A stretch of 64,000 nucleotides of DNA from Actinobacteria bacterium UBA7524 (GCA_002478275.1 DLMY01000016.1:1-64000), one strand, 5' to 3'. Positions 545 through 22,218 are shown, counted from the first letter of the stretch. Translations and numbers: made by a program. The notes: a model not told the origin generated them from the sequence alone.

Positions 545-3500
545 ATGGGCAAAATCGACAAGGGTAAAGGGGTGAACCAGGGCCTGAGCCGGCGCGACTT
601 CCTCAAGACCGGCGCAGTGGCTGCAGCAGCGGCCGCCGCAGGCGCTGAGATCGCCGCTCGCCCGTCAGTTGCCGCAGCCAACACCGTTCCTCAGGAGACG
701 TACCACACGACCTGTCCGTACTGCTCCGCGAGCTGTGGTCAATTCGTTGACGTTGCAGCGAGCGGTAATGTCGAGACAGAGATACTGGACGTCTACGGCG
801 ATCATATGTCGCCGATGAACGATGGTGGTCTGTGCGCGAAGGGCGCTGGCACGTTCCAGCTCGTGAACAACCCCCGCCGCCTTGGCGCGTGGGCTGGCTC
901 GCACCCGGTCAATGACGTGTTCGCGTATGACGAGAACTACGCCGATGGTGTCGCGTACAAGCGGACCGGCAACAATGCGTGGAACAAGATGGACCTGCAG
1001 GACGCGCTCGACGAGATCGCCCCGTTGCTCGTGGACGCTCGCGGGGACGTGACCTACGCGAACGGCTACAACTCCAAGAGCATCGCGTTCTTCGGCTCGT
1101 CGCACATGAACAACGAGCAGAACTACACGTATCGCCGCCTGATCGCTCAGTTCGGCACGTCGAACGTCGAGCATCAGGCCCGTATTTGACACTCCTCGAC
1201 GGTGGCCGGTCTGGCCGCCGCATTCGCACGAGGAGCCATGACCAACAACTGGAGCGATATCGGTAATGCATCGCTCGTGGTCGTCATGGGAGCCAACCCG
1301 TCCGAGAACCACCCGGCATGTATGGCGCACATCAATGCTGCGCGCGCCAAGGGCGGTAAGCTGGTCGTCATCGACCCGCGCAAGACCCGCACGGCTGTTC
1401 AGGCAGACCGTTACATCCGCATCCGTCCCGGTACCGACATCGCGTTCATCAACGGCGTGGTACGAGGTGTCATCGCAGAGATGGAAGACACAGCGAGCGG
1501 TCTTGGCTGGATTCCGGTCGCGACCCGCGAGACGGTTCGCACTAAGTTCTTCGCCTTCTTGAACCAGGGCGACGACACTCGCACGTTCTTCACGGACGGC
1601 GACGCCACCGGGGCGAGCACGACGGTTGCTGTTACCGACTTCTCGAAGTACACCGATGCACGTCTGATCGTGGATGGTTCGGACTACGCCCGTCAGACCA
1701 TTGGATCCGGTCCTACGGGAATCTCCAACTTCCCGCAGTACGCCTCGACCATCGATGGAGATCCGGATACGGTCTACAACTGGCTCAAAGCGCATGTCGA
1801 TCCGTACGACTCTGCTACGGTGACTGATGTTTGTGGCTGTACCGCTGATGACCTGACCTACGTGGTTCGCGCCTTCATCGACAACGGGCGTTGTTCGAGC
1901 GTCGGTGCTGTTACTGGCGCCAACTCTCAGGACCCTCGCGTCGCTGGTTATAAGTGCACCACGATGCTCTATGCGATGGGTCTGACCCAGCACACCCACG
2001 GCGCTTCCAACGTCAAGTCCTTTGCGGTCATCCAGACCCTCATGGGCAACGTCGGTCGTGCCGGCGGCGGCATCAATGCGCTGCGCGGAATCCACAACGT
2101 CCAGGGCTCGACGGACATGGGCAACCTGCAGCACCTGATCCCGTTCTACTCGGGCAACCCGACGGCGATGAGCTACATTGATGCTTCGGGTAATCCGGAT
2201 CCGACGAAGAACCCCGCGAACTACAAGGACTCGTTCGGCAAGTACATGGACATGCTGTGGGGCTCGCCGCTCAACGGTACCGCGGGTCGTACTGAGATGG
2301 ACATGAGCTACGGCGACGCGTATCGTCCGGCCACCCAGGCTGGCGTTCCGGGTCTGCAGCAGTGGGGCTTCTTCAACATGACGTACGACTTCTTCGGTGG
2401 CGGACAGACATGGAAGACGGCGTTCACTTCTGGTGGTTATGTCGACCGGGAGAAGACGGATGCGCTCTACGACCTGTGGCCCAAGACCAACGGTNNNNNN
2501 NNNNNNNNNNNNNNNNNNNNNNNNNNNNNNNNNNNNNNNNNNNNNNNNNNNNNNNNNNNNNNNNNNNNNNNNNNNNNNNNNNNNNNNNNNNNNNNNNNNN
2601 NNNNNNNNNNNNNNNNNNNNNNNNNNNNNNNNNNNNNNNNNNNNNNNNNNNNNNNNNNNNNNNNNNNNNNNNNNNNNNNNNNNNNNNNNNNNNNNNNNNN
2701 NNNNGAGCCGAACCAGAAGTGGATCCGCGAGGGCTTCTACCAGCTCGACACGCTTGTTGTCACGGAGCTCTACGAGACCGAGACGGCTGCAGTCAGCCGC
2801 AAGTCGGACGGCGTCACGTATCTTCTCCCCACGTGCTCGCACGTGGAAGAGGCGGGTAGCGTCTCCAACTCCGGACGCGTGCTGCAGTGGCGTGAGCGTG
2901 CAAGCAAGCCCCGCGGCAACAGTAAGTCCGACCTTGAGCTCCTCTTCAGGTTCGCCAAGGCCCTGAACGACGCAGATGCGTTCACGCACATCACCGATGT
3001 GTGGGACGGCTTCGGCGGGGCGTATGTCGGCCTCGATGCGTTCCAGGTCCTCTACGTCGACCCCTTCAACGACGCTCCGTTCGGTGGGGGTGCCGGCACG
3101 TGGAATGGCGACCTTGATACCTTCGAGGACGTCTCGGCGACCATGGAGGTCTGGCGTGGAGCTGAGACTGCGCCCAAGAACGTTACCGTCTACGGCACCG
3201 AGGTTTTCTGCGACCTGCTCTTCAGGCGCCTGTGCACCCTGAATACCGGCACGTCGTGGCTCTACACGGACGCCTACAACACATCTAAGGGCTCAGGCAG
3301 GCTTCCTGCTGCCCCGTATACTGCTCCAGGTGACGGCGGCCTACAGATTGAGTGGCGGGTCAACAACCGGGCCAAGAGCCGTGATACGCGCGACCCGGTG
3401 GCCACGCTGGCGTACCCTGCATGGGGCTACTCATGGCTGGTCAACCGCCGCGTGCTCTACAACAACGGTGACGTACCCGGTGACCAGCTTGATGGTTACC

Positions 3501-4312
3501 AGCGCCCGGAGAAGCTGGCGGCACTGTTCGCTACCACCAACGCGACGAACGGTCGTGCGCTCAACTACTCCAACTCTTACCGCTTCTACCACCGCCTGGC
3601 GGACAAGCCGGACGTCACGAGCAGCAAGCACGTTCTGCCAGGACGCTTCCCGGCCCACACCGAGCCGTACGAGACGCTTCGTGGTGACCTGCTGTCGACC
3701 TTCGGTCGCAACACCAAGGGCGGCCCGAAGTGGGATCTCGTGCCTTCGGACACCACGGTTTGGGTGCCGCTCGCATCCGAGGCCGGCGGTTCGAAGACCA
3801 ACACGACGCCTGCAGGCATCGTGACGGCAGCCAGCAATGAGGGTCTTCCGGACATCGCACAGCCGCTCGTCATGACGTCGATTCGCTGCGTCGAGCACTT
3901 CCAGGGCGGTCCGATCACCCGGAACAACCCGTGGAACGTTGAGGCGGAGCCGGAGCCGTGGGTCGAGATCAACTCGTTCGATGCGGCTGCTCGCGGCATC
4001 AAAGACGGCGACTACATCAACATCTACACGGTTCGTTCGGACAGCTTCGAATCTGGTATCGCCCGCCCGGCGGTGCGCATGACCGGTTCGAAGGAGAGCG
4101 GCACGTGGAACAAGGGCTACATCGCCCGCGTGGGTGTCGGCCTTCAGTCCAACCAGAGGGTTGGACGTGGCGTCGTCGCAATTCCGTGGCACTGGGGAGA
4201 CAAGGGTCTTTCCACCGGTGCGCGCGCGAACGACCTGTGCATCGATGCAAGCGATGCGAACACTGCGATTCCCGAGTACAAGGCGTGTGTCTGTTGGATC
4301 ACGAAGGCTTAA
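545..4312 (+). CDS. fdhA: Selenocysteine-containing formate dehydrogenase alpha subunit (FdnG/FdhA-like), Tat signal
   Basis: ORFs 545-1189 and 1202-4312 are in frame across TGA 1187-1189, giving QARI-U-HSSTVAGL; SRRDFLK Tat motif; CPYCSASC 4Fe-4S motif; GGGINALRG..NVQGSTD; C-terminal PEYKAC; includes an N gap. Confidence 0.93.
1200..1220 (+). promoter_or_regulatory. Bacterial SECIS element of fdhA
   Basis: Hairpin CGGTGGCC-GGTCT-GGCCGCCG starting at +11 after the in-frame UGA, with GG at the start of the loop. Confidence 0.8.
2495..2704. other. Scaffold gap (210 N) inside fdhA
   Basis: Run of N; flanks do not overlap. Confidence 0.99.
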
Positions 4313-4326: not shown

Positions 4327-5220
4327 GTGGCTAACGTAATGGCTGTATTCCAGGACGTAGATAGGTGCATGCGCTGTAACGGCTGTGTGATCAGCTGTAA
4401 GCGCACGTGGAAGATGAGAGCAGACAACTGGGGTGTTCACAAGACGGCTCCCGACTCAAGGGTCATGATCAAGTCGCAGAAGCGTCTCGACATGGGTCCG
4501 TTCATCCGGTTCAGCTGCTGGCACTGCCCCGATCCTCCCTGTGTTGGACGATGCCCGTTCAACGCACTCACGAAGGAGGAGACCGGAGCGGTCTCGATCG
4601 ACCCGACGCTGTGTTCGCCCGGTGCTACCAATCCGGCGAACGGCAAGACCTGTACCCGTCAGTGCGTGGCAGACTGCCATCGCGGCGGTTATCCCAAGGT
4701 CGGCGTCGGCAGTGACGGCCAGTACACCGATTCGAAGGCGTGGAAGTGCACTCTGTGTCACGGACGCTCTGGAGATATCGAGGGTCTCGATGCTGAGACC
4801 CAGGCGGAGTACCAGGCCAAGTACGGCAACCCGCTTCCCACGAACTACAATTCGACCACGGGTGCTATGACCGTGCCGGAGACCAACCATGAGCCGAGCT
4901 GTGTGTATACATGCCCGGCCAAGGCGATGAAGTGGGATTCGAGGGCGAACATCCAGGCATGGATCTCAAACTCGGACAACGGGTACATCTCGTACATGGG
5001 TAATGGTAGTATGTATTGGGCGAGCTCGAAGTACGTGCTTGCCGCACCGAAGGCAGACCCGTTCATCGAGGACCACATCACGCCGCTCCTTTCGAGCGTG
5101 CTCAACGAGTCGGTCGCCAAGGCCGCTTTGGTCCCGACACTGGTCGCCGGTGGTGTGTTCGCAGTGATCGCTCGTCGGATCGCACTTGCCGACGAAGCCG
5201 CGACGGTTGGAGAGGGGTGA
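4327..5220 (+). CDS. fdhB: Formate dehydrogenase iron-sulfur beta subunit with C-terminal membrane anchor
   Basis: CMRCNGCVISC, CWHCPDPPCVGRC, CTLC, CVYTCP motifs; hydrophobic C-terminal helix; AAGGAGGT RBS. Confidence 0.85.
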   Translation: MANVMAVFQDVDRCMRCNGCVISCKRTWKMRADNWGVHKTAPDSRVMIKSQKRLDMGPFIRFSCWHCPDPPCVGRCPFNALTKEETGAVSIDPTLCSPGATNPANGKTCTRQCVADCHRGGYPKVGVGSDGQYTDSKAWKCTLCHGRSGDIEGLDAETQAEYQAKYGNPLPTNYNSTTGAMTVPETNHEPSCVYTCPAKAMKWDSRANIQAWISNSDNGYISYMGNGSMYWASSKYVLAAPKADPFIEDHITPLLSSVLNESVAKAALVPTLVAGGVFAVIARRIALADEAATVGEG

Positions 5221-5225
5221 TCTGC

Positions 5226-6491
5226 ATGCGGAGAAGTCACGTTCTCATAGTGGTCATAGCCGCAGCGCTCGCGTTCGCCCTGGCTCCGGGTGTCGCGATG
5301 GCGAACAACGCGATTCACGGCGGGTACTCCATGGACACTGATGCGTGCGCCGGTTGTCACCGTGCGCACACGGCTGCAAGCAGCATCCGGTGGACCAAGA
5401 CCGACGGCTCGGAGGGTAGCGCCTTGCTGCTCTCGACTGCCGACGAGGTCTACGAGTTCTGTCTCACCTGCCATGGTGCCGACGCCGCAGGAGCCGCCAC
5501 GAACGTGTGGGACGGCATCTACGAGGGCACCGAAGAAGGTACCCAGTTCGACATGCTCAACGGTGGCGGTTTCAGCGACGCCGACTTCCCGACCACGCAC
5601 CTGTATACGGGTGTCAGCTGGCCGGCATGGGGTGGCTCGACCGATGCAGGACTGCTCGGTGAGCTCATCGATGCCCCTGAAGTCGTGATGTCGTGCTCGA
5701 CCTGTCACGATGTGCACGGTAGCTCCAACTACCGCTTGCTCAAGGATGTCGTGAACGGCCGTACGGTCGGCGGTTACATCGGCGCCGGTCCGGACCCGAC
5801 CCCCGATCCTTGGGTCATCTCCAACGAGCCGGGCTATCCGGACACGGGCTGGCTGCTTCACGAGCCGGGTGCTGTCCAGGTAGCGGGTTACACGCCCAAC
5901 TACACCGAGCCGATGTACTCCAAGGCCCCGGATGAGGATCCGACCAAGGGTATCAGCGGCTGGTGTGCGGCCTGTCACGTCCAGTACCTCGAGCCGACTT
6001 CGACCCCGGTCGCGGGCGGTGCGTGGTGGGACGTCAACCAGACGGTCGACGCTCTTGGTGAGTCGACGACCGATGGCGAGCTCCTTGAGTGGCAGGAAGG
6101 TCGCGTGTACGACGTAACGGACGGCTTCGGCTACGTCGTGCGTCACAAGCACCCGATCAACGTCGAGCTGGCGAACTACCTTGGCGCACGTGATCTCAAC
6201 GTGAACACGCCGGGTCTTCCGCTTGCACACAGCTCCGGTGACGTGGCGACCCACGACCTCACCGACTGGATCGACTGTCTGACCTGTCACAGGTCTCATG
6301 GTTCTGGTTCCTCGATGACGGGCTTTGCCCGCGTCGCTGACTCCACGAACCCTGAGGAAGACACGGGTCCTGGCGGCGTTGCGCCGGCCTTTGGTCAGCA
6401 GGACACCGAGGGTCCCGACGATCCTCGGAGGGGCAATGCGTTGCTCCGTTTGGACAACCGCGGCGTGTGCGAGTCGTGTCACAACAAGTAG
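5226..6491 (+). CDS. Secreted hexaheme c-type cytochrome, OmcS/CwcA-like
   Basis: Sec-type signal peptide (A-M-A); six CxxCH (CAGCH, CLTCH, CSTCH, CAACH, CLTCH, CESCH); ends CESCHNK. Confidence 0.88.
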   Translation: MRRSHVLIVVIAAALAFALAPGVAMANNAIHGGYSMDTDACAGCHRAHTAASSIRWTKTDGSEGSALLLSTADEVYEFCLTCHGADAAGAATNVWDGIYEGTEEGTQFDMLNGGGFSDADFPTTHLYTGVSWPAWGGSTDAGLLGELIDAPEVVMSCSTCHDVHGSSNYRLLKDVVNGRTVGGYIGAGPDPTPDPWVISNEPGYPDTGWLLHEPGAVQVAGYTPNYTEPMYSKAPDEDPTKGISGWCAACHVQYLEPTSTPVAGGAWWDVNQTVDALGESTTDGELLEWQEGRVYDVTDGFGYVVRHKHPINVELANYLGARDLNVNTPGLPLAHSSGDVATHDLTDWIDCLTCHRSHGSGSSMTGFARVADSTNPEEDTGPGGVAPAFGQQDTEGPDDPRRGNALLRLDNRGVCESCHNK

Positions 6492-8224
6492 ACACCACTG
6501 CATCGCAGTTGCGGGAGTCTCGCAACGACGGGAAGGGCCGGGTAACCCCCGGCCCTTCCTTTACGTCGCTTCGGGCGGGTGGCATCAAGTCGGCGCTTCT
6601 GCTAGCGGGCACTTGGGTCGCAGTATCGGTGGCGGCAGCGGGTGAATTCGTGTTCGGTACGACTACCGTAGGCAGTGTCGATCCGGCGGTCGTGGTCGCC
6701 TCGGCGACCCTCGCCGGATCGGCGCTTCTGCTGGCCGTGCACGGTTCCCCTGCAAGTAGGGGTTCTTCCGCACGAGCGCATCCAAGTCCATCATGGGCGG
6801 CTGTCTTGATGATAGTCGCTGGTTCCTTGGTCGCTCAGCTGGGAGCCCCGCTACTCCTGTTCATGAGCCGCAAGACCGACGCGCCTTCAGGCGCGATCGT
6901 GGCGTTTTGGTCCACGGGCTTCTGGGGGCTTGCCCTGGTCCTCGCGGCNNNNNNNNNNNNNNNNNNNNNNNNNNNNNNNNNNNNNNNNNNNNNNNNNNNN
7001 NNNNNNNNNNNNNNNNNNNNNNNNNNNNNNNNNNNNNNNNNNNNNNNNNNNNNNNNNNNNNNNNNNNNNNNNNNNNNNNNNNNNNNNNNNNNNNNNNNNG
7101 CCCTGGTCCTCGCGGCAATCGTCTTCCAGCGGTCGACACGTCGCAGCCCGGCTGTCGTGCTCTCCGCCGGCATGCTGGCCCTCATCTCTGCAGCCGGGGT
7201 TCTCGGCAACTGGGAGCGCCCTAGCTCCTTGTCGCTCCTCACCCGCTTCACTGCTGAGCAACTCACGATCGGCGGCGCAGGTCTACTGTGGGCGGCAGCG
7301 GTGTGCGTCCTTGGGTATCTGGCCAGGCGGCACGGATGGGCACCCGTGGGCAAGTGGGTGGCTGCGTCGGGAGTGGTTGGCGCCGTCATTCTGTCGGCGA
7401 CCCAGGGTGGCCTGGGCGCCATCGTCGCGACTCCCGTCACGGTCTGGGTTCACGCTGTGTGCGCAGGGGCGGTTTTCGTCCTGACCATCACGCTCGCCTC
7501 GACAGGCCGCCTCGCCACTGCCGGAACGGCAATGGCGTTCGCTCCCGCGTTCATGTCACTTCTCACGCTTGTCGAGGTCGCGGTCGGGATGCTTGGACCG
7601 CGTCCGATACTGGTGGAACCCGTGATGTGGGCATCTGCGGCGGGTATTGTGGCCGCTGTCGTCGCGGCGAGTGTGGAGACAACTGAAGTCGCGGCAGGGG
7701 AGTCCGAGTTTCACTCCGGCCCTCCGCCAGTCCGTCTTAGCCTCGCGATCGCCGCCGGCTTCGCGGTCCTGCTGGCCGTTGTCGGCATGTTCTCGCCTGG
7801 TGTTGCGGCCTCGGTGCGCGGGACCTTTTCCGGTGGCGAGGCGTTCGCGGCAGATTTCGTGCTGTCCGGGTGGAGGACGGTCGGGGGATGGCTCGCGCTT
7901 TCCTCGGCAGGTATCGCTTTAGGAATGGCTACAGGTCGCCTGCACCATCGCGCGGTGTTGGCTTCTTCGGGTGCGACCCTGGTGGCGGGGGCTGCATGGT
8001 TCGCGCTGCGTTATACCCCACTTCACACCTGGATGAGCTGGATACCGGCGGAGATTCAGCAGGATTTCGGGACTGAGTATGCACATATTGTGTTTTCCGG
8101 ACTCATCCTCCCCTGGCAGGCTGCTGCGCTGGTACTATCCGCCGTAGTAGCCAGTGCGGCTGCGTGGTTGTCGATACGGCAGCGGATGCGCACCGCAGGC
8201 GGCGAAACGGTCGCCGCGAGCTGA
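6467..8224 (+). CDS. Polytopic membrane protein (possibly DMT/EamA-related); true start uncertain, probably downstream
   Basis: Many hydrophobic segments; ORF spans an N gap with duplicated flanks; the listed start lies upstream of the terminator. Confidence 0.55.
   Translation: MRVVSQQVDTTASQLRESRNDGKGRVTPGPSFTSLRAGGIKSALLLAGTWVAVSVAAAGEFVFGTTTVGSVDPAVVVASATLAGSALLLAVHGSPASRGSSARAHPSPSWAAVLMIVAGSLVAQLGAPLLLFMSRKTDAPSGAIVAFWSTGFWGLALVLAXXXXXXXXXXXXXXXXXXXXXXXXXXXXXXXXXXXXXXXXXXXXXXXXXXXALVLAAIVFQRSTRRSPAVVLSAGMLALISAAGVLGNWERPSSLSLLTRFTAEQLTIGGAGLLWAAAVCVLGYLARRHGWAPVGKWVAASGVVGAVILSATQGGLGAIVATPVTVWVHAVCAGAVFVLTITLASTGRLATAGTAMAFAPAFMSLLTLVEVAVGMLGPRPILVEPVMWASAAGIVAAVVAASVETTEVAAGESEFHSGPPPVRLSLAIAAGFAVLLAVVGMFSPGVAASVRGTFSGGEAFAADFVLSGWRTVGGWLALSSAGIALGMATGRLHHRAVLASSGATLVAGAAWFALRYTPLHTWMSWIPAEIQQDFGTEYAHIVFSGLILPWQAAALVLSAVVASAAAWLSIRQRMRTAGGETVAAS
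6531..6562 (+). terminator. Intrinsic terminator after hexaheme cytochrome
   Basis: GGAAGGGCCGGG-loop-CCCGGCCCTTCC followed by TTT. Confidence 0.7.
6949..7099. other. Scaffold gap with duplicated flanks (likely artefact)
   Basis: GCCCTGGTCCTCGCGGC occurs on both sides of the N run. Confidence 0.9.
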
Positions 8225-8244: not shown

Positions 8245-9156
8245 ATGGATCGGATCACCCGTATTCTCACGGTCTTTCTTGTGCTCGGCGCACTCCTGGT
8301 GGGTGCGGGGTGTAAGAAGCAGATGGTGACCGTCCGCACCGGCGAGATAGTCCTGTGTACCGAGGGTGAGGTCATCTCGGACACCACAGAACAGCTTTCG
8401 GTGCCCGCCGCCGATGTCGGCGACTACAAGGTCACCACTCACGTGGAGACGTGTGAGCTGCACAAGAAGCTCGCTGCGCTCTATGAGGCGGCCCAGGCGG
8501 CGATCGCGGCTGGAGATCTCGACAGTGCCCTGGCGCGCCTTAAAGAACTGACAGGACTCGATCCCTCTTACCGCAGGGCCGCCCAGCAGCTCGCCGACAT
8601 CGAGGCGGGCAGGACTCCTCCGACGGATCGCACGGCTGGCTCCGGCGGGGGTGTCGCGACAGGCGGTGGCGCTTCGAGCGGAGGCGCCTCTGGCGGCGGT
8701 TCGAGCAGCGGCGGTTCGAGTGGTACGACGCCGCCAGACGATGACGCCAACGTGCCGACCGGCCCGGTGATGAATCTCGTCAACTACGTCCCTGACACGC
8801 TTCCTGGTTTCAACGGACAGGATCTGATCGTTGATGTGTTCGCGCTCACCAGGAACTACGTCCCGACGTCGAAAGGCTCGATCGCCACGCTCGTGATCGT
8901 CGTCGAGCAGTTCCAGGACGAGGCGGCCGCCAAGAAGGCGCTCGACCAGACGATCAAGGTCGACTACCCGCAGGGAGGCGCCGGGCTGACGGTCAAGGGC
9001 CGTACGGGTTACTTCGGAGCACGTCAGGGCTTCGGCGTCGTGGCGTTCGCCGATGGAGCCCTGCTCGTGGCGATAGAAGGCGGCGCACATTCCAGCACGG
9101 GAGGCACCGCACTCAAAGCACCGCTCACGACGCTCGCTGACGCGGTACTTCCTTAA
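8245..9156 (+). CDS. Lipoprotein of unknown function
   Basis: Lipobox LLVGAG-C; TPR-like helical segment; Gly/Ser-rich linker. Confidence 0.75.
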   Translation: MDRITRILTVFLVLGALLVGAGCKKQMVTVRTGEIVLCTEGEVISDTTEQLSVPAADVGDYKVTTHVETCELHKKLAALYEAAQAAIAAGDLDSALARLKELTGLDPSYRRAAQQLADIEAGRTPPTDRTAGSGGGVATGGGASSGGASGGGSSSGGSSGTTPPDDDANVPTGPVMNLVNYVPDTLPGFNGQDLIVDVFALTRNYVPTSKGSIATLVIVVEQFQDEAAAKKALDQTIKVDYPQGGAGLTVKGRTGYFGARQGFGVVAFADGALLVAIEGGAHSSTGGTALKAPLTTLADAVLP

Positions 9157-9254: not shown

Positions 9255-12200
9255 ATGAGAACGAACTCGCACTCGCACCGGGCGCTTAAGGTGTTTCTGA
9301 CGCTGTGTCTGGCCTTCACGCTGGTACCTGTGGTGAATCCTCAGCCCGCGAGCGCGGTCTGGACGGACGCTGGCTGGTTAGGCGTGACGCTGCGGTGCGT
9401 GACCTTCATCGACTCGAACGTCGGCTTTGTGGCGGGAGATTCAGGCGTGATCATCAAGACGGAGAACGGCGGTGTGAGATGGCGCGTCGTCCGCTCCGGC
9501 GGTACCGAGAGGATCACGGGGATCACCTTCGCTGACAGCACCACCGGATGGGCGGTCGCGCAGTCCGGGGTGGTATACGGGACCACGGATGGCGGGGACA
9601 CGTGGAGCAAGATCTCCGATGGACTCGCCGCTTCGTATTCCGGTCCGAACATCTACGACACCATATTCGCCGGCGTGAACAGGTTGTTTGCGGTCGGAGG
9701 CGCGCTGGGCACGCAGCCAGCCGTCTGGGACAGCGGGAATGGTTCGTACAGCTGGGGTCAGGCGGCCCTGCTCGGTTCCTATGACCCGTCCGGCGACTAC
9801 ACGAGCCCGTGGCCGCGTGATGGCCTGGGCGCTTTCTATGGTATCGACCAGTTCGACGGTACAGTGTGGGTCGTGGGCCAGGACTGGCTCAAGACGCCGA
9901 CCCGCAGCGTGGTATGGCGCAACAACAGCGGCAGTCCCAACTGGACCGAGCAGCAGCTCAAGACGAGCACAGGCGTGTTCGAGACGGTGCCCTACTACGA
10001 CATCTCGTTCTCCTCGGCTACTAATGGAGTAGCAGTCGGTGGCACGGGGAAGGTCCACACGACCACGACGGGTGGGACCACGTGGACTCCGCGTACGTCG
10101 GGTGTGACCGTGGACCTCAAGGGCGTATCGATCGCGCCGGGCACTTCGAGTGGATGGGCTGTCGGCGCATCGAACACTTTGCTGCGTACCACGAACGGAG
10201 GGGCGAACTGGACCGCGCAGGCGTCGGGTGTGTCACCGGCCCCAGCCTGGGAGGATGTGTACGCGATCAGCGCGACGAAGGCGGTCGCCGTAGGTAGCTC
10301 CGGGCGTGTCGTCTACACCACAGATGGTGGCACCACATGGACACAGCCGGCGCAATTCCCCGCCGCCCCTGTGATGACGACCTTGACGTCGAGCTCTCAC
10401 CCCTCAGGGACCTGGGTCAAGTCGACCGCTCTTTCCGCCGCATGGAGCGCCACGGGCGAGCCGCCGCTCGGTTACGGATGGGAGCTCGATACTTCACCGG
10501 CAACGGTGCCTACGGTGCAGAAGACGACCGGGACTACGCTGTCGACCACGGCGCCCGGCAGCGGTACCTACTACTTGCACGTGGCGGCGAAGGACCAGTG
10601 GAACAGGTGGAGTGCGCCGTTGCACAGACAGGTGCTCGTCGATGTCACTGTGCCTACGGCCATCGATGACGTCTATGCGGGAGGATACGTCTTCTCGGCG
10701 AGGGTCACGGTAAGCGCGTCGGATGCGCATTCCGGAGTGAAGCGCGTCGAGTATCGGGTCAACAGCGGGTCCATCGTGCAGGTCAGTGGCGCTCAGGCCA
10801 TCATCGACCTGGGGGCCGGTGATCACCAGCTCGAGTACCGGGCAGTCGACAATGTCGACAATGTGAGCAGTTGGGTCTCTAAGAGCGTCAACGTCGAGAA
10901 TCCGACGCCACCAGAGATGACATCGCTTACGTCCTCGACACATCCGGCCGGTGCGTGGACCGCTTCGACGGATATCGGAGCGAGTTGGAGTGCCACGGGT
11001 GTGGCTCCACTCGGGTACGGTTGGGTGGTCGACATGTCTCCGGGTACGGTTCCCGGGGTGCAGAACACGTCCGCTACCACGCTTTCAACCACTGTGGCTG
11101 GCAGTGGGACGTACTACCTGCACGTCGCGGTGCGTGACGTCTACGGTCGCTGGAGCGCACCGATGCATAGGCAGCTGCTGGTCGACGTCACCGTGCCCGA
11201 AGTGGCCGATGACGTATTCGAAGGCGACTACGAGGCTCGCGCACGCATCACGTTGAGTGCATCTGACGCCCACTCTGGCGTACAGCGAATCGAATACCGC
11301 ATCGATGGTGGCAGCGTGGTCCAGGTTGCCGCTTCGCAGGCGGTCGTCGACATCGATGGCGTCGGTGAGTATGAGATCACCTATCGCGCAATCGACAATG
11401 CGGGCAATGCGAGTGGTTGGATGACGGCCGACGTGAGCGTCGTGCCACCAGCAGGTCCTGAGATGACGTCCTTGACCTCGTCGAGCCATCCTGTGGGGAC
11501 CTGGACAGCGAGCACTTCGGTAAGCGCCGCGTGGAGCGCGACAGGTGATGCGCCGCTTGCCTACGGATGGGTGCTCGACACGTCTGCCGGAACCGTGCCC
11601 AGCGCGACGAACACCTCGAACACGACCCTTTCCACAACCGTCGCGGGCAGCGGCACTTACTACCTCCACGTACGCGCACGTGACAGCTACGAGCAGTGGA
11701 GCGCCACTTCACATCGGCAGCTGCTGGTCGACGTCACCCTGCCGCAGTCAGTCGATGACGTGCTGTCGGGTGGTTACACGACATCCGCCAAAGTCACCGT
11801 CTCGGCATCCGATACCCACTCCGGCGTCCAGCGCATCGAGTACCGTATCGACGGAGGAGACATCGTACAAGTCACGGCATCACAGACAAGCATCGATTTC
11901 GGTGTAGGAGAGCATGCTCTCAGTCACCGCGCCGTCGACAACGCGGGCAACGTCAGTGGATGGACGAACAGGGCTGTGACGGTCTCGCCGCCCGCTCCGC
12001 CAGTTATGACGGAGCTTGGATCGTCCTCTCACGCACAAGGTACCTGGACTTCCTCGTTGAACGTGTCCGCTGCGTGGAGCGCAAGCGGCACCGGTATCAC
12101 GGGATACGGATACGTGCTGGACACGTCGCCCGGCACGGCTCCTGGTGTGCAGAATACGACAGGCACCACGCTTTCGACCTCCGTTGCGGGCAGTGGTACC

Positions 12201-14042
12201 TACTACCTGCACGTCGCGGCGAAGGACGCGTACGATCAGTGGAGCGTCCCGTGGCACCGGCAGCTGCTCGTCGACGTCACCGCTCCCGCAGCGGCTGACG
12301 ATGTGTTCGCCGACGGCTACGTGATCTCGGCTCACGTCACTCTGACCGCCACAGATGCTCACTCAGGCGTGCAGAGGATCGAGTACCGGATCGACGGCGG
12401 GTCCGTAGTGCAGGTGACCGGTGCTCAGGCCGGCATCGACTTTGGTATCGGAGAGCGCCTTCTGGAGTACCGTGTCGTCGACAACGCCGGGAACGTGAGT
12501 GCGTGGACCCCCAAGACAGTGAGTGTCTCGCCGCCTCCACGACCCGTGATGACGCAGGTCAGCTCGTCGACGCATCCGGAAGGCGCGTGGGCGACCTCGA
12601 CGTCGTTGTCTGCGACCTGGAGTGCCTCGGGAACGGGAATCGACGGGTATGGGTGGATCGTCGATCAGTCTCCCGATACCGTCCCTGTGACAGCGAACAC
12701 GACCGGGACCAGCATGTCGCAGTCTCTCGCGGGCAGCGGCGTCTACTACCTCCATGTGGCCGCACGCGACGCCTACGGTCAGTGGAGTCTCCCGTGGCAT
12801 CAGCAGATCCTGGTGGACAACACGGCTCCGGAACCATCGGATGACATCTCACCGGACCCGTATCCGGGTGCTGCGCAGGTCACGATCTCCGCGAGCGACG
12901 CGCACTCCGGTGTGGCTCGCATCGAATACCGTATCAACGGTGGCGCGGTCCAACAGGTTGCCGCAGCTCAGGCGGCGGTCGACATCGTGCCCGCCACGCA
13001 GTCGATCTCGTACCGTGCCGTGGACAGGGCGGGCAACGCTTCCTCATGGGTCACAAAGCAGATCACTGTGGAGTTGCCCGTCGTGCCCGTGGAGGGCAAG
13101 GACCGCTATGCGACGGCCATAGCTGCCGCTGACATCGTGTACCCGGGCATCATGCCCTCCGGCCCTGACGGCAACCGCACCGTGGTCCTCGCCTCCGGTG
13201 AGAACTGGCCGGACGCTCTGGCTGCCTCGGGACTTGCGGGTGCGCACAGAGCCCCACTGCTGCTCACGAAATCGACCTCGCTCCCGACGACCGTGGCGCA
13301 GAAGATCGCGTCGCTCGGCGCCAACCGCGTGATCATCGTGGGAGGCACGGCAGCGGTCTCCGACGCGGTCGCGACGGCAGCCGGGCAGGCGGTGGGTGGC
13401 GCCAGCCGGGTCTCACGCATCGCAGGATCGCACCGTTATGCGACGGCGAACGCCATCGCCGCTGCCACGGTGGCCGTTCCGGGCCGTACGGCTTGGGACG
13501 GCACGGCGTTCGTCGCGACGGGAGACAATTTCCCCGACGCGCTGGCAGTGGCTCCGCTCGCCGCCGACAAGGGCTATCCCTTGTACCTGGCGGCACCCAC
13601 AGGCATAAGCGATGCCACACTCGCTGCGATGAAGGCGGCGGGGGTCAAGCGCGTGTACCTGCTCGGCGGCACGGCGGCAGTAAGTCCGTTGACCGAGAGC
13701 CGCATCGCAGGTACCGGCATCTCAGTGGCCGGGCGCTGGGCGGGTTCGGACCGCTTCGCCACGGGTCGCGTGATAGCAGAGAATTCGCTGAATTCGGGGC
13801 TCACGGCGCGTGAGGTCGCTTTGGCTACCGGACGTAACTTCCCCGATGCGCTCGCGGGCGGCGTGATGCAGGGCCTGACCGGCTCGATCATGGTGCTCAC
13901 CGAGAGTACGCGACTGCACGCGCAGGCCGAGGCGGTTCTTGCCGCTAACGTGTCCTCGATCCATGAGATACGCTTCGTCGGAGGCCTTTCCGCGCTTGCC
14001 CAAGACGTGCGTGACAGGGCCGAGGAGGTCGTTGCGCCGTAG
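9255..14042 (+). CDS. Cell-surface protein: YCF48/BNR-type beta-propeller, five Ig-like double-domain repeats, cell wall binding repeat 2 (CWB2) anchor
   Basis: Signal peptide; repeated TxxGGxxW motifs; five ~181-aa repeats; C-terminal G.DRY.T / G.NFPDALA / GG.AAVS motifs x3. Confidence 0.88.
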   Translation: MRTNSHSHRALKVFLTLCLAFTLVPVVNPQPASAVWTDAGWLGVTLRCVTFIDSNVGFVAGDSGVIIKTENGGVRWRVVRSGGTERITGITFADSTTGWAVAQSGVVYGTTDGGDTWSKISDGLAASYSGPNIYDTIFAGVNRLFAVGGALGTQPAVWDSGNGSYSWGQAALLGSYDPSGDYTSPWPRDGLGAFYGIDQFDGTVWVVGQDWLKTPTRSVVWRNNSGSPNWTEQQLKTSTGVFETVPYYDISFSSATNGVAVGGTGKVHTTTTGGTTWTPRTSGVTVDLKGVSIAPGTSSGWAVGASNTLLRTTNGGANWTAQASGVSPAPAWEDVYAISATKAVAVGSSGRVVYTTDGGTTWTQPAQFPAAPVMTTLTSSSHPSGTWVKSTALSAAWSATGEPPLGYGWELDTSPATVPTVQKTTGTTLSTTAPGSGTYYLHVAAKDQWNRWSAPLHRQVLVDVTVPTAIDDVYAGGYVFSARVTVSASDAHSGVKRVEYRVNSGSIVQVSGAQAIIDLGAGDHQLEYRAVDNVDNVSSWVSKSVNVENPTPPEMTSLTSSTHPAGAWTASTDIGASWSATGVAPLGYGWVVDMSPGTVPGVQNTSATTLSTTVAGSGTYYLHVAVRDVYGRWSAPMHRQLLVDVTVPEVADDVFEGDYEARARITLSASDAHSGVQRIEYRIDGGSVVQVAASQAVVDIDGVGEYEITYRAIDNAGNASGWMTADVSVVPPAGPEMTSLTSSSHPVGTWTASTSVSAAWSATGDAPLAYGWVLDTSAGTVPSATNTSNTTLSTTVAGSGTYYLHVRARDSYEQWSATSHRQLLVDVTLPQSVDDVLSGGYTTSAKVTVSASDTHSGVQRIEYRIDGGDIVQVTASQTSIDFGVGEHALSHRAVDNAGNVSGWTNRAVTVSPPAPPVMTELGSSSHAQGTWTSSLNVSAAWSASGTGITGYGYVLDTSPGTAPGVQNTTGTTLSTSVAGSGTYYLHVAAKDAYDQWSVPWHRQLLVDVTAPAAADDVFADGYVISAHVTLTATDAHSGVQRIEYRIDGGSVVQVTGAQAGIDFGIGERLLEYRVVDNAGNVSAWTPKTVSVSPPPRPVMTQVSSSTHPEGAWATSTSLSATWSASGTGIDGYGWIVDQSPDTVPVTANTTGTSMSQSLAGSGVYYLHVAARDAYGQWSLPWHQQILVDNTAPEPSDDISPDPYPGAAQVTISASDAHSGVARIEYRINGGAVQQVAAAQAAVDIVPATQSISYRAVDRAGNASSWVTKQITVELPVVPVEGKDRYATAIAAADIVYPGIMPSGPDGNRTVVLASGENWPDALAASGLAGAHRAPLLLTKSTSLPTTVAQKIASLGANRVIIVGGTAAVSDAVATAAGQAVGGASRVSRIAGSHRYATANAIAAATVAVPGRTAWDGTAFVATGDNFPDALAVAPLAADKGYPLYLAAPTGISDATLAAMKAAGVKRVYLLGGTAAVSPLTESRIAGTGISVAGRWAGSDRFATGRVIAENSLNSGLTAREVALATGRNFPDALAGGVMQGLTGSIMVLTESTRLHAQAEAVLAANVSSIHEIRFVGGLSALAQDVRDRAEEVVAP
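10368..13075 (+). repeat. Five diverged intragenic tandem repeats of 543-546 bp
   Basis: P[VE]MTx[LV]xSSxH starts recur with ATG at 10374, 10917, 11463, 12006 and 12549; each unit has YYLHV and DxHSGVxR[IV]EYR. Confidence 0.85.
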
Positions 14043-14300: not shown

Positions 14301-17300
14301 ATGGTGTGGTCGATGCTAAAGGGCATCGCCGCGCGTGTTTTTGCGTGCGGTCAAAGGGGATGTCGGGGTAGGGTGGCTGCAGTCGCGGCAGCCGCCGTCT
14401 TCGCGATACTTCTCGCCGCACAACCCGCCTTGGCCACGAGCGCCCCGCACGTGCCCACGTCCTTGGAGACGGACACATGTGCGATGTGCCACCGCGCTCA
14501 CACCTCGGGTTCCGACACTACCTGGACCGTGTCCGGGGTCTCGGGCGAGGCGACCGGAAACGCGCTCATCCTGGGCGACTACACCGGAATCGGCGACACA
14601 GGTTTGTGTTTCACCTGTCACGGTGTGGAAGCGCTCGGATCCGAATCGAGCATTCAGCGCGAGTTCGATTCGGCTTCAGCACACCTGCTCATGCCCGCTG
14701 TTTCCGAATTCGGCCCCACAGCGAAGCAGTGCAGCTCGTGTCATGACAGTCACGGCTCCGAGCGTGACCTGGACGGAGACCCCTTCGCCGCGTTACTGCG
14801 GGCGTACTCGATCGAGTCCCCGTTCGGCCCTTCGTATGGAACCGACGAGTACTGCGGGACGTGCCACCTCGATCGGCCGCAGAGCCGGTTCGACGGCCTC
14901 GCGGTCTGGTACGAGACGGCCCATTCGAGTGAGATGACACCACCCGCTTCGGGTACCGGTATCGTCTGCGTGAATTGCCATGAGGCCCATGGGTCGACTC
15001 TGGCCCCGCTCGTCCGCTCCACACTGCAGCCGCCTGCGGCACCGGCGACCGTTACGATCGACGCTAACGATCGCGAGCTGTGCCTGGCGTGCCACTCCGG
15101 AACGCTGGCCACTTTCTCCGGGCGCGAGGCCTACGACATCTCAGGCCATGCTCTCTCTGAAGCAACCGTGACGATCTCCGGTGAATGGCCCTCCCGGGAA
15201 GCGACCCGCACGGTCGGCGAATGCCAGAACTGTCACGCGCCGATGGGACGCTCCGATGGCGATGGAGGTGTGATACCGAAGTTGGTCGACAAGACCGGCC
15301 GCGAGATGTGCGATACATGCCATTCCGCTGATTCTCCAGCAGGTGAGGCGGCCGGTGACTTCGCGCAGTTCAGGTTCCCGGCATCCGAGACAACGAAGCT
15401 CGAGGTAGCTGTAGCCTACAACGCCGAGCGGCTCCCGACGGTCTTCGACCGCCTTGCGCTGTATGCGCAGGAGACGACAGGCACGCTGCCGTTCGACCTT
15501 ACCGGTCCACGCGAGTATGACGTGCCCGGCGAGGCCGCCGACATGGTCGCGGCGGACGTGCAGCAAGACGGTGTCACACAGCTGCTGATCGCCGATCCAA
15601 GCGCCAAGCGCATCGTGATGGCCACTCCCGACCCGCTCGCTGGCGTTTCGGTCTCCGAGTACTCGCTCACGACCACGCCGACATTGATAGCGGTCGGCGA
15701 TGTATTCGTCGAAGACTCCGGTCGACCTGAGCTCGTCGTGGTCTCTCGTTCCGAGGAGACCACCGTCAACAACAGCTTCCTCTACGTGTACCGCTGGAAA
15801 GACACCTCTGCCACGACCGGCGAGTTCGAGGAGCTGGCCGGGCCGATCGCCCTGGACGATGAGGCCTCCGGCCTCGCGGTGGGCTATCTGGGCCGGCTCG
15901 ACGATGGCGACGACATCGTCGTGACCGCATACGGTGTCGTTTCGGGACCGTCGGTGAGCATCTACCGGGAATCCTCGGCGACTCCCGGCAGCCTCGATGA
16001 CCCGCCCACATACCGTTACGACGACGCCGATGGCGTGCTCGCCGGCCCACGCGGGCCGAGCATCGGTGACGCGGACGCCGCATCGGCCGGCAACGAGATC
16101 GCCGTGGCGAACTCGCGGGAGACCGTCGACACACTCACGCTGATCAGCCCGACGACAGGTCCCATCGCCTCCTACGAGGCCACCGTCGCGCCGGGTGCAT
16201 GGGCCTGGGACACGCTGATAGCCGACGTGCTGCCCGGTCCTGGTTTCGACGGCGCAGAGACTGTCGTCGCGCTGCGCAACAACGTCGGCGCGAGCGGCAT
16301 CAATGTGTTCGGGCGTCACGGTACGGCGGGCCTCGTCACACCGCCACTCTCATACGAGACAGGCCACTACTTCGCGACGTCCTCGCTCGCTTCCGGCGAT
16401 GTCGATTCGGCCGAAAACGGTCGCGCCGAACTCGTCGTCGCCAATGCCGGCACGTGGGCCGAGACGCCCGGCGGTGATCCGACACCGCCGTCGATACAGG
16501 TCTTCCGCACGAACGTCGCGGGGGACGCGCTGCTGACTCCGCCGTCGGTATACTCGGCAGGCGGCGTGGAGAAGGCCGGTAACACCCCGGCGCTCGCCCT
16601 GGCAGACCTCGGCTCCGTCGGAGGCTCTCGACACCCGACCTCCGTCTCCGCCGATCCGGATGCCGTCAGGACCGCGCATGTCTCCACCGAGACCGCCGAC
16701 ACGGAGCCGTTCGAGCTGCACGTCGAGTGTACGGACTGCCACAACGTGCATGAAGCCACGAGCACGCCGTCTCCGGCCGACGCGACCGCACCCGAGGTCT
16801 ACGGACGCCTCAAGGGCGCCTGGGGCATACAGGTCGAGTACGGCCCTGCTGCGGCCACCACGTACACTCAGCGTCAGGGCGTTCTGTACGAGTACGAGGT
16901 GTGCTTCAAGTGCCACTCTGGCTGGACGCGTACCCCGGACAGTGGAGACGACATCGCCGCGCAGTTCGACACCCGCAACCCGTCCTTCCATTCGATCGCC
17001 GGCGGCAGCACCAACGCCTCGAATACCGCAGGTTCATTCGTGAACGCCACTCCCGCATGGACCACGACGTCGGTCCTGCACTGCGTGGATTGTCACGGCA
17101 ACAGCGATACCGACAAGCCCGTTGGTCCGCATTCGAGCCCCTCGGCGCCGCTACTCTCGCGTCCGCTCTGGGGCGTCTCACCCGCCGAGGAGACAGGGCT
17201 TTGCTACAAGTGCCACAAGCGCAGCGTCTACTACACGGGCGTCGACGACGGTACGGCCAGCCCGGGCTCGATGAGCATGTTCCATGATGGCACCCTGGCA

Positions 17301-17930
17301 GAGCCCAAGCTCCACAAGCTGCACAGCGAGACGGCCGGTTTCTCGTGCGAGACATGTCACTACCCGCACGGTGCCAGGGAGCATGAGCATCTCATCCGGC
17401 CGGGACTCGATTGGGTGCACCTTGAGAATGGCGGCGCGTGCTATACGCCGTGTCACGGGGGGAGTACCGCTAATGTCTATTCGCGCGTCGCTGCCGTCAG
17501 CGGAGACGCCACAGCCACCGCTATCACGCCGATAACCTATCAGTCGGTGAGCGGGAACCTGGCTTCGATACTGACTCAGGGTGACCTTGATGTGTACACC
17601 GTCCAGGAGCGTCAGGGCAACTACCCCGTGTTGCGACTCCAGGTCCAGTTCGGCGGGCTGGCGGGCAACCCCAGCAGTTTCCGCCTGTTCGGTCGCTATC
17701 AGGGTAACGTCGGCCACACGGTCGAGGTTCGCGTCAAGAACCAGACGAACGGACAGTGGGTCGTTCTCGGCGAGATCCCTCATGCCACGGTCAATGGCGA
17801 GTACGTCTACCCCTTGGGCAATCCTGCCTACGTCAGTGGCACGGGGTTGCTCGAGATCGAGATCGATCACGTGACGGGTGGCTCGGCCACGCACTACCTC
17901 TATATCGACCGGGCCTGGTTGCGGTATTAG
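14301..17930 (+). CDS. Large secreted multiheme cytochrome c with internal FG-GAP/integrin-alpha-like propeller
   Basis: Signal peptide; 13 CxxCH plus one CxxxCH (8 N-terminal, 6 C-terminal); intervening GDV...G..ELVV-type repeats; C-terminal beta-rich domain. Confidence 0.85.
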   Translation: MVWSMLKGIAARVFACGQRGCRGRVAAVAAAAVFAILLAAQPALATSAPHVPTSLETDTCAMCHRAHTSGSDTTWTVSGVSGEATGNALILGDYTGIGDTGLCFTCHGVEALGSESSIQREFDSASAHLLMPAVSEFGPTAKQCSSCHDSHGSERDLDGDPFAALLRAYSIESPFGPSYGTDEYCGTCHLDRPQSRFDGLAVWYETAHSSEMTPPASGTGIVCVNCHEAHGSTLAPLVRSTLQPPAAPATVTIDANDRELCLACHSGTLATFSGREAYDISGHALSEATVTISGEWPSREATRTVGECQNCHAPMGRSDGDGGVIPKLVDKTGREMCDTCHSADSPAGEAAGDFAQFRFPASETTKLEVAVAYNAERLPTVFDRLALYAQETTGTLPFDLTGPREYDVPGEAADMVAADVQQDGVTQLLIADPSAKRIVMATPDPLAGVSVSEYSLTTTPTLIAVGDVFVEDSGRPELVVVSRSEETTVNNSFLYVYRWKDTSATTGEFEELAGPIALDDEASGLAVGYLGRLDDGDDIVVTAYGVVSGPSVSIYRESSATPGSLDDPPTYRYDDADGVLAGPRGPSIGDADAASAGNEIAVANSRETVDTLTLISPTTGPIASYEATVAPGAWAWDTLIADVLPGPGFDGAETVVALRNNVGASGINVFGRHGTAGLVTPPLSYETGHYFATSSLASGDVDSAENGRAELVVANAGTWAETPGGDPTPPSIQVFRTNVAGDALLTPPSVYSAGGVEKAGNTPALALADLGSVGGSRHPTSVSADPDAVRTAHVSTETADTEPFELHVECTDCHNVHEATSTPSPADATAPEVYGRLKGAWGIQVEYGPAAATTYTQRQGVLYEYEVCFKCHSGWTRTPDSGDDIAAQFDTRNPSFHSIAGGSTNASNTAGSFVNATPAWTTTSVLHCVDCHGNSDTDKPVGPHSSPSAPLLSRPLWGVSPAEETGLCYKCHKRSVYYTGVDDGTASPGSMSMFHDGTLAEPKLHKLHSETAGFSCETCHYPHGAREHEHLIRPGLDWVHLENGGACYTPCHGGSTANVYSRVAAVSGDATATAITPITYQSVSGNLASILTQGDLDVYTVQERQGNYPVLRLQVQFGGLAGNPSSFRLFGRYQGNVGHTVEVRVKNQTNGQWVVLGEIPHATVNGEYVYPLGNPAYVSGTGLLEIEIDHVTGGSATHYLYIDRAWLRY

Positions 17931-17994: not shown

Positions 17995-19038
17995 CTACCT
18001 TACGATCAACACCGGTGTTCCGACCTCTACGCGCTCGTAGAGGTCCTCGATGTCCCAGCGATGCATGCGCATGCATCCGTGGCTCGCGGCGGTTCCGATC
18101 GATGAGTTCTTCGTCGTTCCGTGTATCCGAATGCCCGGAACGTTGAGGTTGAGCGCTCTCGTGCCCAGGGGATTGCTCGGGCCCGGAGGGATATAGGCGG
18201 GCATGTCGGCGCCCCACCCGTTGGGAGCGGGATTACTCCACGAGGGCCTGTAGCGCTTCAGTATGATCTCGAAAGCGCCCTTGGGGGTCGGGTAGCGCGC
18301 TGTCCCCACAGCGACGCCGTACTTCTTCTCAAGCTCCATGCCGTCATAGAGGTAGAGTCTGCGTTCAGAGATCTTCACGACTATGGTCTTGCCCAGATCC
18401 GTCTCGGAGACCGCCGGCTCAACAGCATCCACCATGAGACTCACGCGCTTGACGCCCTCCAGCAGTGCTTCTTCGATCTTACCGGCGGTGCGCTCGACGT
18501 CTGTCGCACGACCTGTCTCCGAGGCGCGCATCACGATCTGCCCGGCGTCGAGGGTGAACGTCGCATCGACCGCAGGCGTGTCGACTCGGGACGCCACGGT
18601 GCGGACCCACTGAGCGATCCGCTCGCTATCGACCTCGAGGACCGGCTCGATCTCGGTGGTCTCCTCGGCCCCGGTGACGCGCAGCAGAGTGCGCTCGGCG
18701 ACAGTGACCGACGATTTCGGGTCGAATGCGGCATCAAGCATCGCGTCGATGTCCACGAACAGGGTGTCGGACGGGTCGAACGAGAACGCGACACCTCCGT
18801 AGACGACTTCGACAGGGGCGAGCAGGGGAGATGCCACCCTGCCTTCGAGCAACCGACGGGCGTCGTTCCTGGACAGGCCGGACAGGCTCACGCCGTCGGC
18901 AAGTGCCACTCCATCGGGTACGATGTCCCGGGTCTGGTAGTCGTCAGCGACCGACCAGGCGAAACCGGCGGACAACGCAAGCATCACGCTGGCCGCCAGG
19001 AGTCCAAGCAGGCGCAGCGCGCGTGTGCGGACACTCAT
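17995..19038 (-). CDS. L,D-transpeptidase (YkuD domain) with peptidoglycan-binding region
   Basis: NPLGTRAL, IRIHGT, ASHGCMRM motifs; N-terminal membrane helix. Confidence 0.9.
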   Translation of the reverse strand: MSVRTRALRLLGLLAASVMLALSAGFAWSVADDYQTRDIVPDGVALADGVSLSGLSRNDARRLLEGRVASPLLAPVEVVYGGVAFSFDPSDTLFVDIDAMLDAAFDPKSSVTVAERTLLRVTGAEETTEIEPVLEVDSERIAQWVRTVASRVDTPAVDATFTLDAGQIVMRASETGRATDVERTAGKIEEALLEGVKRVSLMVDAVEPAVSETDLGKTIVVKISERRLYLYDGMELEKKYGVAVGTARYPTPKGAFEIILKRYRPSWSNPAPNGWGADMPAYIPPGPSNPLGTRALNLNVPGIRIHGTTKNSSIGTAASHGCMRMHRWDIEDLYERVEVGTPVLIVR

Positions 19039-19111
19039 GAGCGAAATCCTTCCGGCGGGTTGCAGGTATTCTACAATGTTCTAAGGCTGCGGTCACACAC
19101 CAGGAGGACTC

Positions 19112-19954: not shown

Positions 19955-20018
19955 CGACACGCGGACGAAGTGGCGTTGCTCGGGTTGACGCCGCAGGAGT
20001 GAGGAGGAACTCACAGTC

Positions 20019-21335: not shown

Positions 21336-21342
21336 GGTATCC

Positions 21343-22204: not shown

Positions 22205-22218
22205 CCGGCGGATGCCAT

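Follow-up and report, generated by a model that had tools for sequence, protein, structure and literature searches.

The gene at positions 5226 to 6491 of the window (the whole stretch of 64,000 nt that was analysed) encodes a hexahaem c-type cytochrome which, according to profile comparisons, is a distant homologue of the nanowire protein OmcS, and we regard this homology as secure. The gene occupies the slot of fdnI and is the third gene in a unit consisting of a riboswitch, fdnG, fdnH, the cytochrome gene and a probable terminator. On balance, we favour the view that the cytochrome serves as redox partner dedicated to one enzyme, an exported formate dehydrogenase (FDH) with selenocysteine (Sec), where it would replace the cytochrome b subunit FdnI and would probably be linked head to tail via His residues.

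The hexahaem ORF is located on the plus strand, starts with an ATG at 5226, 5 nt past the fdnH stop codon, ends with a TAG at 6491 and encodes 421 aa. Its N-terminus is hydrophobic (hydropathy), and an A24-x-A26 site is conserved across the family in the alignment. The sequence implies a Sec-type signal peptide and a secreted mature chain of 395 aa. Six CxxCH motifs start at residues 41, 79, 157, 247, 351 and 415. The motifs listed in a preliminary description of this DNA were all found in the translation, in the same order: H31, CAGCH(45)RAH(48), LL..CLTCH(83) and GGGF..H125 in the N-terminal half; CSTCH(161)DVH(164)G..YRLL and GISGWCAACH(251) in the middle; and RH(307)KH(309)P, CLTCH(355)RSH(358)GSGSSMTGF and RGVCESCH(419)NK in the C-terminal half. 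A match to PF09699 identifies CxxCHxxH as a generic multihaem motif, which counts against reading it as specific for OmcS. Membership in the class III cytochromes c3 was not indicated by Pfam (PF14537, 18.5 bits at a cut-off of 25; no match to PF02085). The host genome (1.81 Mb, 83% complete; the window is carried by contig C9) contains one full-length copy of the gene only.

To follow the histidines across the family, we used 75 full-length copies, 74 from related loci (best 80 of 411 stretches) and the copy of the window, while 14 partial matches were excluded. In this set from the best 80 of 411 stretches, the six proximal His and H31, H48, H125, H164, H309 and H358 are invariant (75/75), CxxCHxxH is confined to haems 1, 3 and 5 (75/75), and haem 6 is followed by exactly two residues up to the C-terminus (75/75). 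The preliminary description counted six candidate distal His, but a thirteenth His, H212 (71/75), and also H307 (64/75) are widely kept among the copies from the best 80 of 411 stretches. In the family alignments A1 and A2 both H212 and H307 are below 90% conservation, whereas H48 is invariant in all three family alignments, including the diverse set of 94 sequences.

A PDB search with the single hexahaem sequence (phmmer) revealed no matches at E<=10. With a profile of 118 close relatives, OmcS (6EF8/6NEF) was matched at residues 8-406 with an E value of 4.6e-12. When the profile was built from a more diverse set of 94 relatives (8 relatives plus 86 of 87 full-length representatives with six haems), OmcS was matched along its length with an E value of 7.4e-21. 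The preliminary description had proposed homology to OmcS and an alignment as the check on it, and this match to OmcS 8-406 bears the proposal out. Other multihaem proteins, which served as control for similarity based on motifs only, gave partial matches to the diverse profile: 9yuq (2.5e-8), 7tfs (OmcE; 6.6e-7) and chain A of the Mtr complex, 6r2q (7e-7).

Two haem-free AlphaFold2 models of the hexahaem protein (pLDDT 74.3 and 80.9) were also compared to known structures. Among 48,161 chains, 6EF8 was the best structural match of both models in VIA, with Z scores of 10.4 and 11.6, followed by the next matches at 4.3 and 4.8. The better model superposes on 6EF8 with an rmsd of 3.4 over 224 of about 395 residues, with about 26% identity in this part. 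In Foldseek, the match to 6EF8 had an E value of 1.7e-3 and a TM score of 0.33 for the first model, and 3.3e-4 and 0.31 for the second. For the second model 6EF8 was the sole match under 1e-3, while for the first model there was none at E<=0.001 and OmcS was on top. The TM scores of 0.31-0.33 and the single sequence without a PDB match would be in line with unrelated proteins resembling each other by their CxxCH motifs alone. However, we consider this explanation extremely improbable: the profile E value for OmcS (7e-21) is 12 orders beyond that of any other multihaem protein, the non-haem motifs GGxF, YR, GxSxWC and RxxCxxCHxK are common to both proteins in the same order, and a Z score above 5 was obtained for 6EF8 alone among the 48,161 chains. 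Since only 224 of about 395 residues superpose, with a TM score of 0.31, the surface corresponding to the OmcS interface may differ in the modelled hexahaem protein.

In the alignment obtained with the diverse profile, all six CxxCH motifs are in register with OmcS, and H48, H125, H164 and H358 fall on OmcS histidines. H309 is placed in the same interval as an OmcS His but out of register, H31 is beyond the aligned range (HMMER), and for H212 no equivalent is seen in the alignment with OmcS. The conserved His after haem 1, to which the preliminary description had drawn attention, was recovered in both profile alignments, where H48 is aligned with H16 of OmcS. We take His16 of OmcS to be the inter-subunit ligand of haem 5, and if the layout of OmcS (6EF8 structure) applies, no haem within the same chain would presumably be available to H48. 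According to the accessible text of PMC6584659, 11 of the 12 axial His of OmcS act within the subunit, and the remaining ligand, that of haem 5, is supplied by the neighbour. In the OmcS layout, a neighbouring molecule has to satisfy both the His that follows haem 1 and the distal site of haem 5, and for this reason we propose that the hexahaem protein would either stack head to tail into short oligomers or dock on partners sharing its N-terminal module, such as the 13-haem cytochrome described below.

Alternatively, the protein could be a cytochrome c subunit that does not polymerise, functionally comparable to the cytochrome subunit of FdhABC3 from Desulfovibrio. Haem 5 would then be completed by water, an additional His or a partner protein, and the electrons would pass to membrane multihaem or quinone modules in ordinary respiration. 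The extra conserved residues H212 (71/75) and H307 (64/75) in the copies from the best 80 of 411 stretches would suit this explanation, and H212 in particular could fill haem 5 within one chain, which speaks against stacking. A NapC/NirT-type 21-haem membrane cytochrome encoded in the window and the cytochrome b561 heading the cluster in some relatives point in the same direction. On the other hand, H48 is invariant in three alignments, H212 is outside the 90%-conserved columns of A1 and A2, and on the OmcS layout the own chain presumably offers no haem to H48. We therefore judge a non-polymerising subunit to be rather unlikely.

The FDH operon is entirely on the plus strand. It is preceded by a Mo/W-cofactor (Moco) riboswitch (RF01055) at 189 to 311, detected by Rfam with 74 bits at a cut-off of 36 (E 1.7e-16). 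The gene at 545 to 4312, which contains a masked stretch of N, encodes an FdnG-type catalytic subunit predicted to be Tat-exported (Pfam TAT_signal, Molybdop_Fe4S4 and Molybdopterin), with TIGR01553 (FDH-N alpha) as the best NCBIfam match, under the cut-off. An in-frame UGA at 1187-1189 lies in the context EHQARI-UGA-HSSTV of the FDH active site, and it is presumably read as selenocysteine. A stem-loop at 1187-1240 (z -2.8), directly after the UGA, is a SECIS candidate. The following gene at 4327 to 5220 encodes an FdnH-like iron-sulfur subunit (Fer4_7, Fer4_11) with a hydropathy peak at residues 262-280, and this C-terminal hydrophobic helix presumably serves as a membrane anchor. Downstream of the hexahaem gene, a G+C-rich hairpin of 13 bp followed by a short U-run at 6530 to 6560 (fold z -3.1) is probably an intrinsic terminator closing the three-gene operon. 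Hairpins of <= -20 kcal/mol within 100 nt past the stop codon were found for 71 of 73 family genes in comparison to 12 of 73 in-gene control windows (best 80 of 411 stretches), the composition of which differs from that of intergenic DNA. A scan of the window for sigma-70 promoters and consensus terminators performed no better than chance and did not flag the hairpin at 6530 to 6560.

Judged by its domains, the FDH of the window is a member of the FdnGHI type with a Tat-exported Sec catalytic subunit and an Fe-S subunit, and we call it divergent since its scores are under the FDH-N cut-offs. An FdnI gene was not found in the operon: PF01292 matches are confined to contigs C23, C34 and C45, with none on C9. 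The genome also harbours a conventional FdnG-FdnH-FdnI-FdhE set (C23) and a hydrogenase with cytochrome b (C45). The FdnG proteins of the window and of C23 share the UGA context and about 30% identity, and the presence of the conventional set together with this identity level supports the notion that the window enzyme is of a distinct, divergent type. The window FdnG is longer than the conventional one (about 1255 versus about 1060 codons), and the large subunits of hexahaem-linked hydrogenases, which are described below, comprise 580-827 aa in most loci in comparison to 520 aa in the conventional enzyme. This extra length suggests surface insertions in the cytochrome-linked enzymes.

To see which genes accompany the cytochrome in relatives, we inspected the best 80 of 411 confirmed candidate stretches, corresponding to 76 loci; this set is biased towards close relatives and does not consist of independent members. 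In 59 of the 76 loci (best 80 of 411 stretches) fdnH is located immediately 5' of the hexahaem gene, one locus lacks upstream sequence, and 16 have other upstream neighbours. These 16 loci from the best 80 of 411 stretches comprise eight in which the hexahaem gene lies behind a Tat-exported [NiFe] hydrogenase, with the large subunit gene directly upstream, five in which it lies behind an NHL gene, and three others. Seven further, truncated second hexahaem copies are also behind hydrogenase genes (best 80 of 411 stretches). The small subunit of this hydrogenase has no obvious membrane anchor at its end (inspected by eye in 7 loci); the large subunit contains Cys and not Sec (7 loci), and its best NCBIfam match is of the NiFeSe type, under the cut-off. 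The Moco riboswitch was detected in 4 of 5 FDH loci versus 0 of 2 hydrogenase loci scanned. In a quick IQ-TREE analysis, for which 10 distant sequences served as outgroup, the copies linked to FDH and those linked to hydrogenase form separate branches with SH-aLRT values of 98 and 100. The position of the gene as the third one in a riboswitch-preceded FDH operon, together with the separate clade of hydrogenase paralogues, fits an enzyme connector better than a bulk nanowire subunit.

In seven loci (L043, L045, L046, L066, L072, L073 and L075), an FDH module adjoins a hydrogenase module back to back, and both modules have a TPR-NHL pair of their own; a second OmcS-like copy is seen in six of these loci. 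Behind the hydrogenase-linked paralogue, a soluble protein of about 460 aa without Pfam match is encoded where a membrane protein otherwise stands (L042:10016-11473, L074:11308-12921 and eight other loci; best 80 of 411 stretches).

In most relatives (best 80 of 411 stretches), genes for a multihaem protein, a 20-haem protein, a TPR protein and an NHL-propeller protein are located upstream. Among the extended loci, 3 of 7 have a cytochrome b561 gene at the head of this cluster, as do 5 of the 76 shorter loci (best 80 of 411 stretches); this gene was not found in the two extended loci of the same family. Five loci titled Thermoleophilia (L006, L015, L016, L025 and L033) show the order multihaem-20-haem-TPR-NHL-OmcS-like without a dehydrogenase, with a cytochrome b gene ahead in 4/5 and tandem OmcS-like copies in 3/5. 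In the quick tree the Thermoleophilia copies are nested within the FDH-linked branch, and a transfer with loss of fdnGH is a possible explanation. These five loci from the best 80 of 411 stretches speak against a strict link to the enzyme and show that the hexahaem gene can exist apart from it.

Some of these observations would also be compatible with a true nanowire subunit of the Geobacter style, which forms micrometre-long extracellular filaments with the dehydrogenase plugged into the base of the wire. This would extend the conductive filament that the preliminary description had inferred. Much of the His layout of OmcS is conserved, including H48 at the position of OmcS H16, and the tandem, enzyme-free Thermoleophilia copies resemble omcS-omcT. 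Furthermore, the upstream TPR, NHL beta-propeller and 20-haem genes of the relatives recall the osc cluster of Geobacter, part of which the NHL genes presumably resemble. In the 83%-complete host genome, where the contig starts 544 nt before fdnG, close orthologues of these upstream genes were not found. The osc cluster is described in the accessible text of PMC13194489. Parvivirga hydrogeniphila, a member of the Anaerosomatales, was reported to form pili-like appendages on ferrihydrite only (PMC9686372); however, these are 0.8-0.9 nm wide (PMC9686372), in contrast to about 4 nm for OmcS filaments (PMC6584659). Moreover, co-transcription with the FDH genes behind a Moco riboswitch would suit a low stoichiometry, as would the transcript levels in strain EMTCatB1 (see below), which are only about 2-5 times those of the FDH genes, and enzyme-specific paralogues would be unexpected for a generic wire. 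Taken together, we consider a long Geobacter-style wire improbable and prefer the dedicated enzyme connector.

Host placement in the order Anaerosomatales (Actinomycetota, Coriobacteriia) was inferred from the labels of relatives, although some related records are titled Eubacteriales; the occurrence of an OmcS-like cytochrome in an actinobacterial host, as claimed in the preliminary description, is supported. At E<=1e-20 the hexahaem family was detected in 105 of 401 genomes of the class, i.e. in 105 of the 146 genomes of the order and in 0 of 255 others, whereby a few low scores may be fragments. The named ones among 10 distant representatives of the family are one Actinomycetota and one Chloroflexota protein. 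With one FdnI query, compared by hand and with some genomes incomplete, 36 of the 146 order genomes were positive, 17 of them belonging to the 105 hexahaem carriers. FdnI and the OmcS-linked modules appear partly complementary: in genus g6 FdnI is present in 6/8 and the hexahaem gene in 0/8 genomes, and in g7 in 5/5 and 0/5, respectively. The idea of a general formate cycling between the window FDH and a conventional FdnGHI was weakened by the presence of FdnI in only 17 of the 105 hexahaem genomes.

Downstream of the operon, the ORF at 6467 to 8224 (plus strand) encodes a conserved membrane protein, for which about 12-13 TM helices are predicted; its true start is uncertain and is placed past the hairpin. 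It has no Pfam or NCBIfam match, and its family is present in 58 of 77 loci (best 80 of 411 stretches). An Atlas score of 0.89, obtained with a relative, gives a weak lead to EamA/DMT, to be taken as a lead only. The protein contains a WERPSS-type motif, accompanies the FDH module and is absent after the hydrogenase module. Since it goes along with the FDH but not with the hydrogenase module, a formate or cofactor transporter is conceivable. We rejected the idea of a new cytochrome b replacing FdnI, as there is no invariant His in 43 sequences, and no homology was found to the protein which follows the hydrogenase-linked cytochrome copy. Next comes a conserved gene for a lipoprotein-like protein (8245 to 9156, plus strand), found in 56 of 77 loci (best 80 of 411 stretches) behind FDH and hydrogenase modules alike, and then a gene for a large surface protein (9255 to 14042, plus strand) with a beta-propeller, Ig-like repeats and three CWB2 cell-wall-binding repeats (Pfam, NCBIfam). 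Further downstream, the region 17995-25526 contains an L,D-transpeptidase-like gene on the minus strand and a chemotaxis-like cluster (CheR-, MCP-, CheW- and CheY-like ORFs, by eye), and such a stretch also follows the cytochrome cluster in about 16 related loci (best 80 of 411 stretches). A NapC/NirT-type membrane cytochrome (PF03264) with 21 CxxCH motifs, encoded at 42955-45096, is a candidate link from quinol to the multihaem proteins.

The gene at 14301 to 17930 (plus strand) encodes a 13-haem surface cytochrome; its N-terminal two-haem module, H...CxxCHRxH...CxxCH, and the corresponding module of the hexahaem protein are homologous (hmmsearch E 6.6e-18; hhalign probability 98.8 over 83 columns). 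This module is present in 19 of 19 large cytochromes of the 13-haem type, among those listed. The 13-haem protein is a candidate cap or adaptor: by providing the last subunit of an OmcS-type stack with a His for haem 5, it could close or branch the stack. According to the connector model which we favour, FdnGH would be held on the outer face of the membrane by the FdnH anchor and would trade electrons with the six-haem chain, by which the FDH would be linked across the cell wall to the network of multihaem proteins, to minerals, to electrodes or to partner cells. It is tempting to go further and to envisage enzyme-tipped wires, in which each donor enzyme (Sec-FDH and [NiFe] hydrogenase) has its own polymerising OmcS paralogue leading through the wall, capped by the 13-haem cytochrome via the shared N-terminal His-ligation module, running in both directions and bypassing the quinone pool. 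We see this extended version as a speculation that is unlikely to hold. If it were true, electrons from formate or H2 would be delivered to Fe(III), or electrons from cathodes, minerals or partner cells would enter formate or H2.

As to the direction of electron flow in the dedicated connector, we regard oxidation of formate, with the electrons flowing off via the haems, as the most likely option at about even odds, while reversible use of the FDH-hexahaem pair is possible but less probable, and a role chiefly in electron uptake for making formate appears doubtful. With Fe(III), P. hydrogeniphila can use formate or H2 for growth, and a cytochrome b anchor is missing from the multihaem cluster that encodes its FDH (PMC9686372). 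This growth favours formate oxidation, provided that its cluster MCL4079376-90 corresponds to the operon of the window. Electron uptake was proposed for Coriobacteriaceae sp. EMTCatB1 in a methanogenic biocathode by the authors of PMC7943316.

These considerations are important for several reasons. The known role of OmcS is that of a terminal nanowire in one Gram-negative genus, while here an OmcS-type module is tied by operon structure to electron-donor enzymes. This applies to about 70% of the genomes from an order which is widespread in the subsurface and includes a cultured obligate Fe(III) reducer and a dominant biocathode organism. If our proposal is correct, the protein by which these monoderms couple formate or H2 chemistry with the flow of electrons outside the cell would be identified. 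In addition, the OmcS fold would be an enzyme connector too and not just a long wire, and the system would be suitable for testing OmcS-type polymerisation beyond Geobacter.

Parts of this picture have been published separately, namely an OmcS homologue in Coriobacteriia (PMC7399161) and a hexahaem gene beside FDH genes (PMC7943316). We did not come across the combined picture, an order of monoderms with an OmcS-family cytochrome as dedicated third component of exported FDH or hydrogenase, in the literature searched, although existing surveys of homologues may list the family. A literature search for OmcS with Coriobacteriia revealed no paper under that pairing, and in the accessible text of PMC10954620, a survey of OmcS homologues, 'Actino' does not occur. 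In EMTCatB1, the genes for the large FDH subunit (1c0408), an Fe-S protein (1c0407) and a 6-haem protein (1c0406) are arranged in this order (Kobayashi et al. 2021, PMC7943316, Table S9). We matched 1c0406 to our locus L022 by gene order and haem count, not by sequence. Its transcript belongs to the top 10% and exceeds those of the FDH genes about 2-5 fold, while the next gene has 135 TPM (PMC7943316, Tables S5 and S9). Mean values of 2716, 901 and 437 TPM are given for closed circuit, BrES and open circuit (PMC7943316), the column order being inferred from the logFC columns; the gene is not significantly circuit-regulated (FDR 0.64), and the closed-circuit replicates, with 345 and 5087 TPM, are 15-fold apart (PMC7943316). 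The term 'OmcS' is absent from the main text of that paper, and a hydrogenase-linked twin is not described in its accessible parts (PMC7943316).

The OmcS homologue of the Coriobacteriales MAG S27 BJP was described from an anode biofilm, with six CxxCH motifs and 28% identity to OmcS (Arbour et al. 2020, PMC7399161); compared by description, the dehydrogenase context, the family-wide distribution and the distal His go unmentioned in the accessible text of that work. CwcA (Tfer_0075) of Thermincola ferriacetica is a hexahaem OmcS homologue of a Gram-positive bacterium and was modelled as a short stack spanning the wall (PMC7911101, PMC12203936). Again compared by description, CwcA belongs to a chain from quinol to the surface (ImdcA-PdcA-CwcA-OcwA) and is not located behind a dehydrogenase, and its polymer is a homology model (PMC7911101).

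In comparison to OmcS itself (GSU2504, G. sulfurreducens, 6EF8/6NEF), the hexahaem protein of the window differs by its monoderm host, by the location of its family behind fdnGH or hydrogenase genes, by the Moco riboswitch and by the extra H212, and its polymerisation is putative. Both proteins have in common the order of the six CxxCH motifs, CxxCHxxH at haems 1, 3 and 5, a C-terminus just past haem 6 and a secreted mature chain of about 400 aa. On the side of the enzyme, FDH-N of the E. coli type (FdnGHI) and FdhABC3 of Desulfovibrio are Tat-exported Sec molybdo- or tungsto-enzymes with an Fe-S subunit, and FdhABC3 has a c-type cytochrome as third subunit. In contrast to FDH-N, the operon of the window is devoid of the cytochrome b FdnI, the predicted third subunit is of the OmcS family, and the host has no outer membrane. 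With FdhABC3 there is a functional analogy, but the place of cytochrome c3 as the third subunit would be taken by a cytochrome of the OmcS family.
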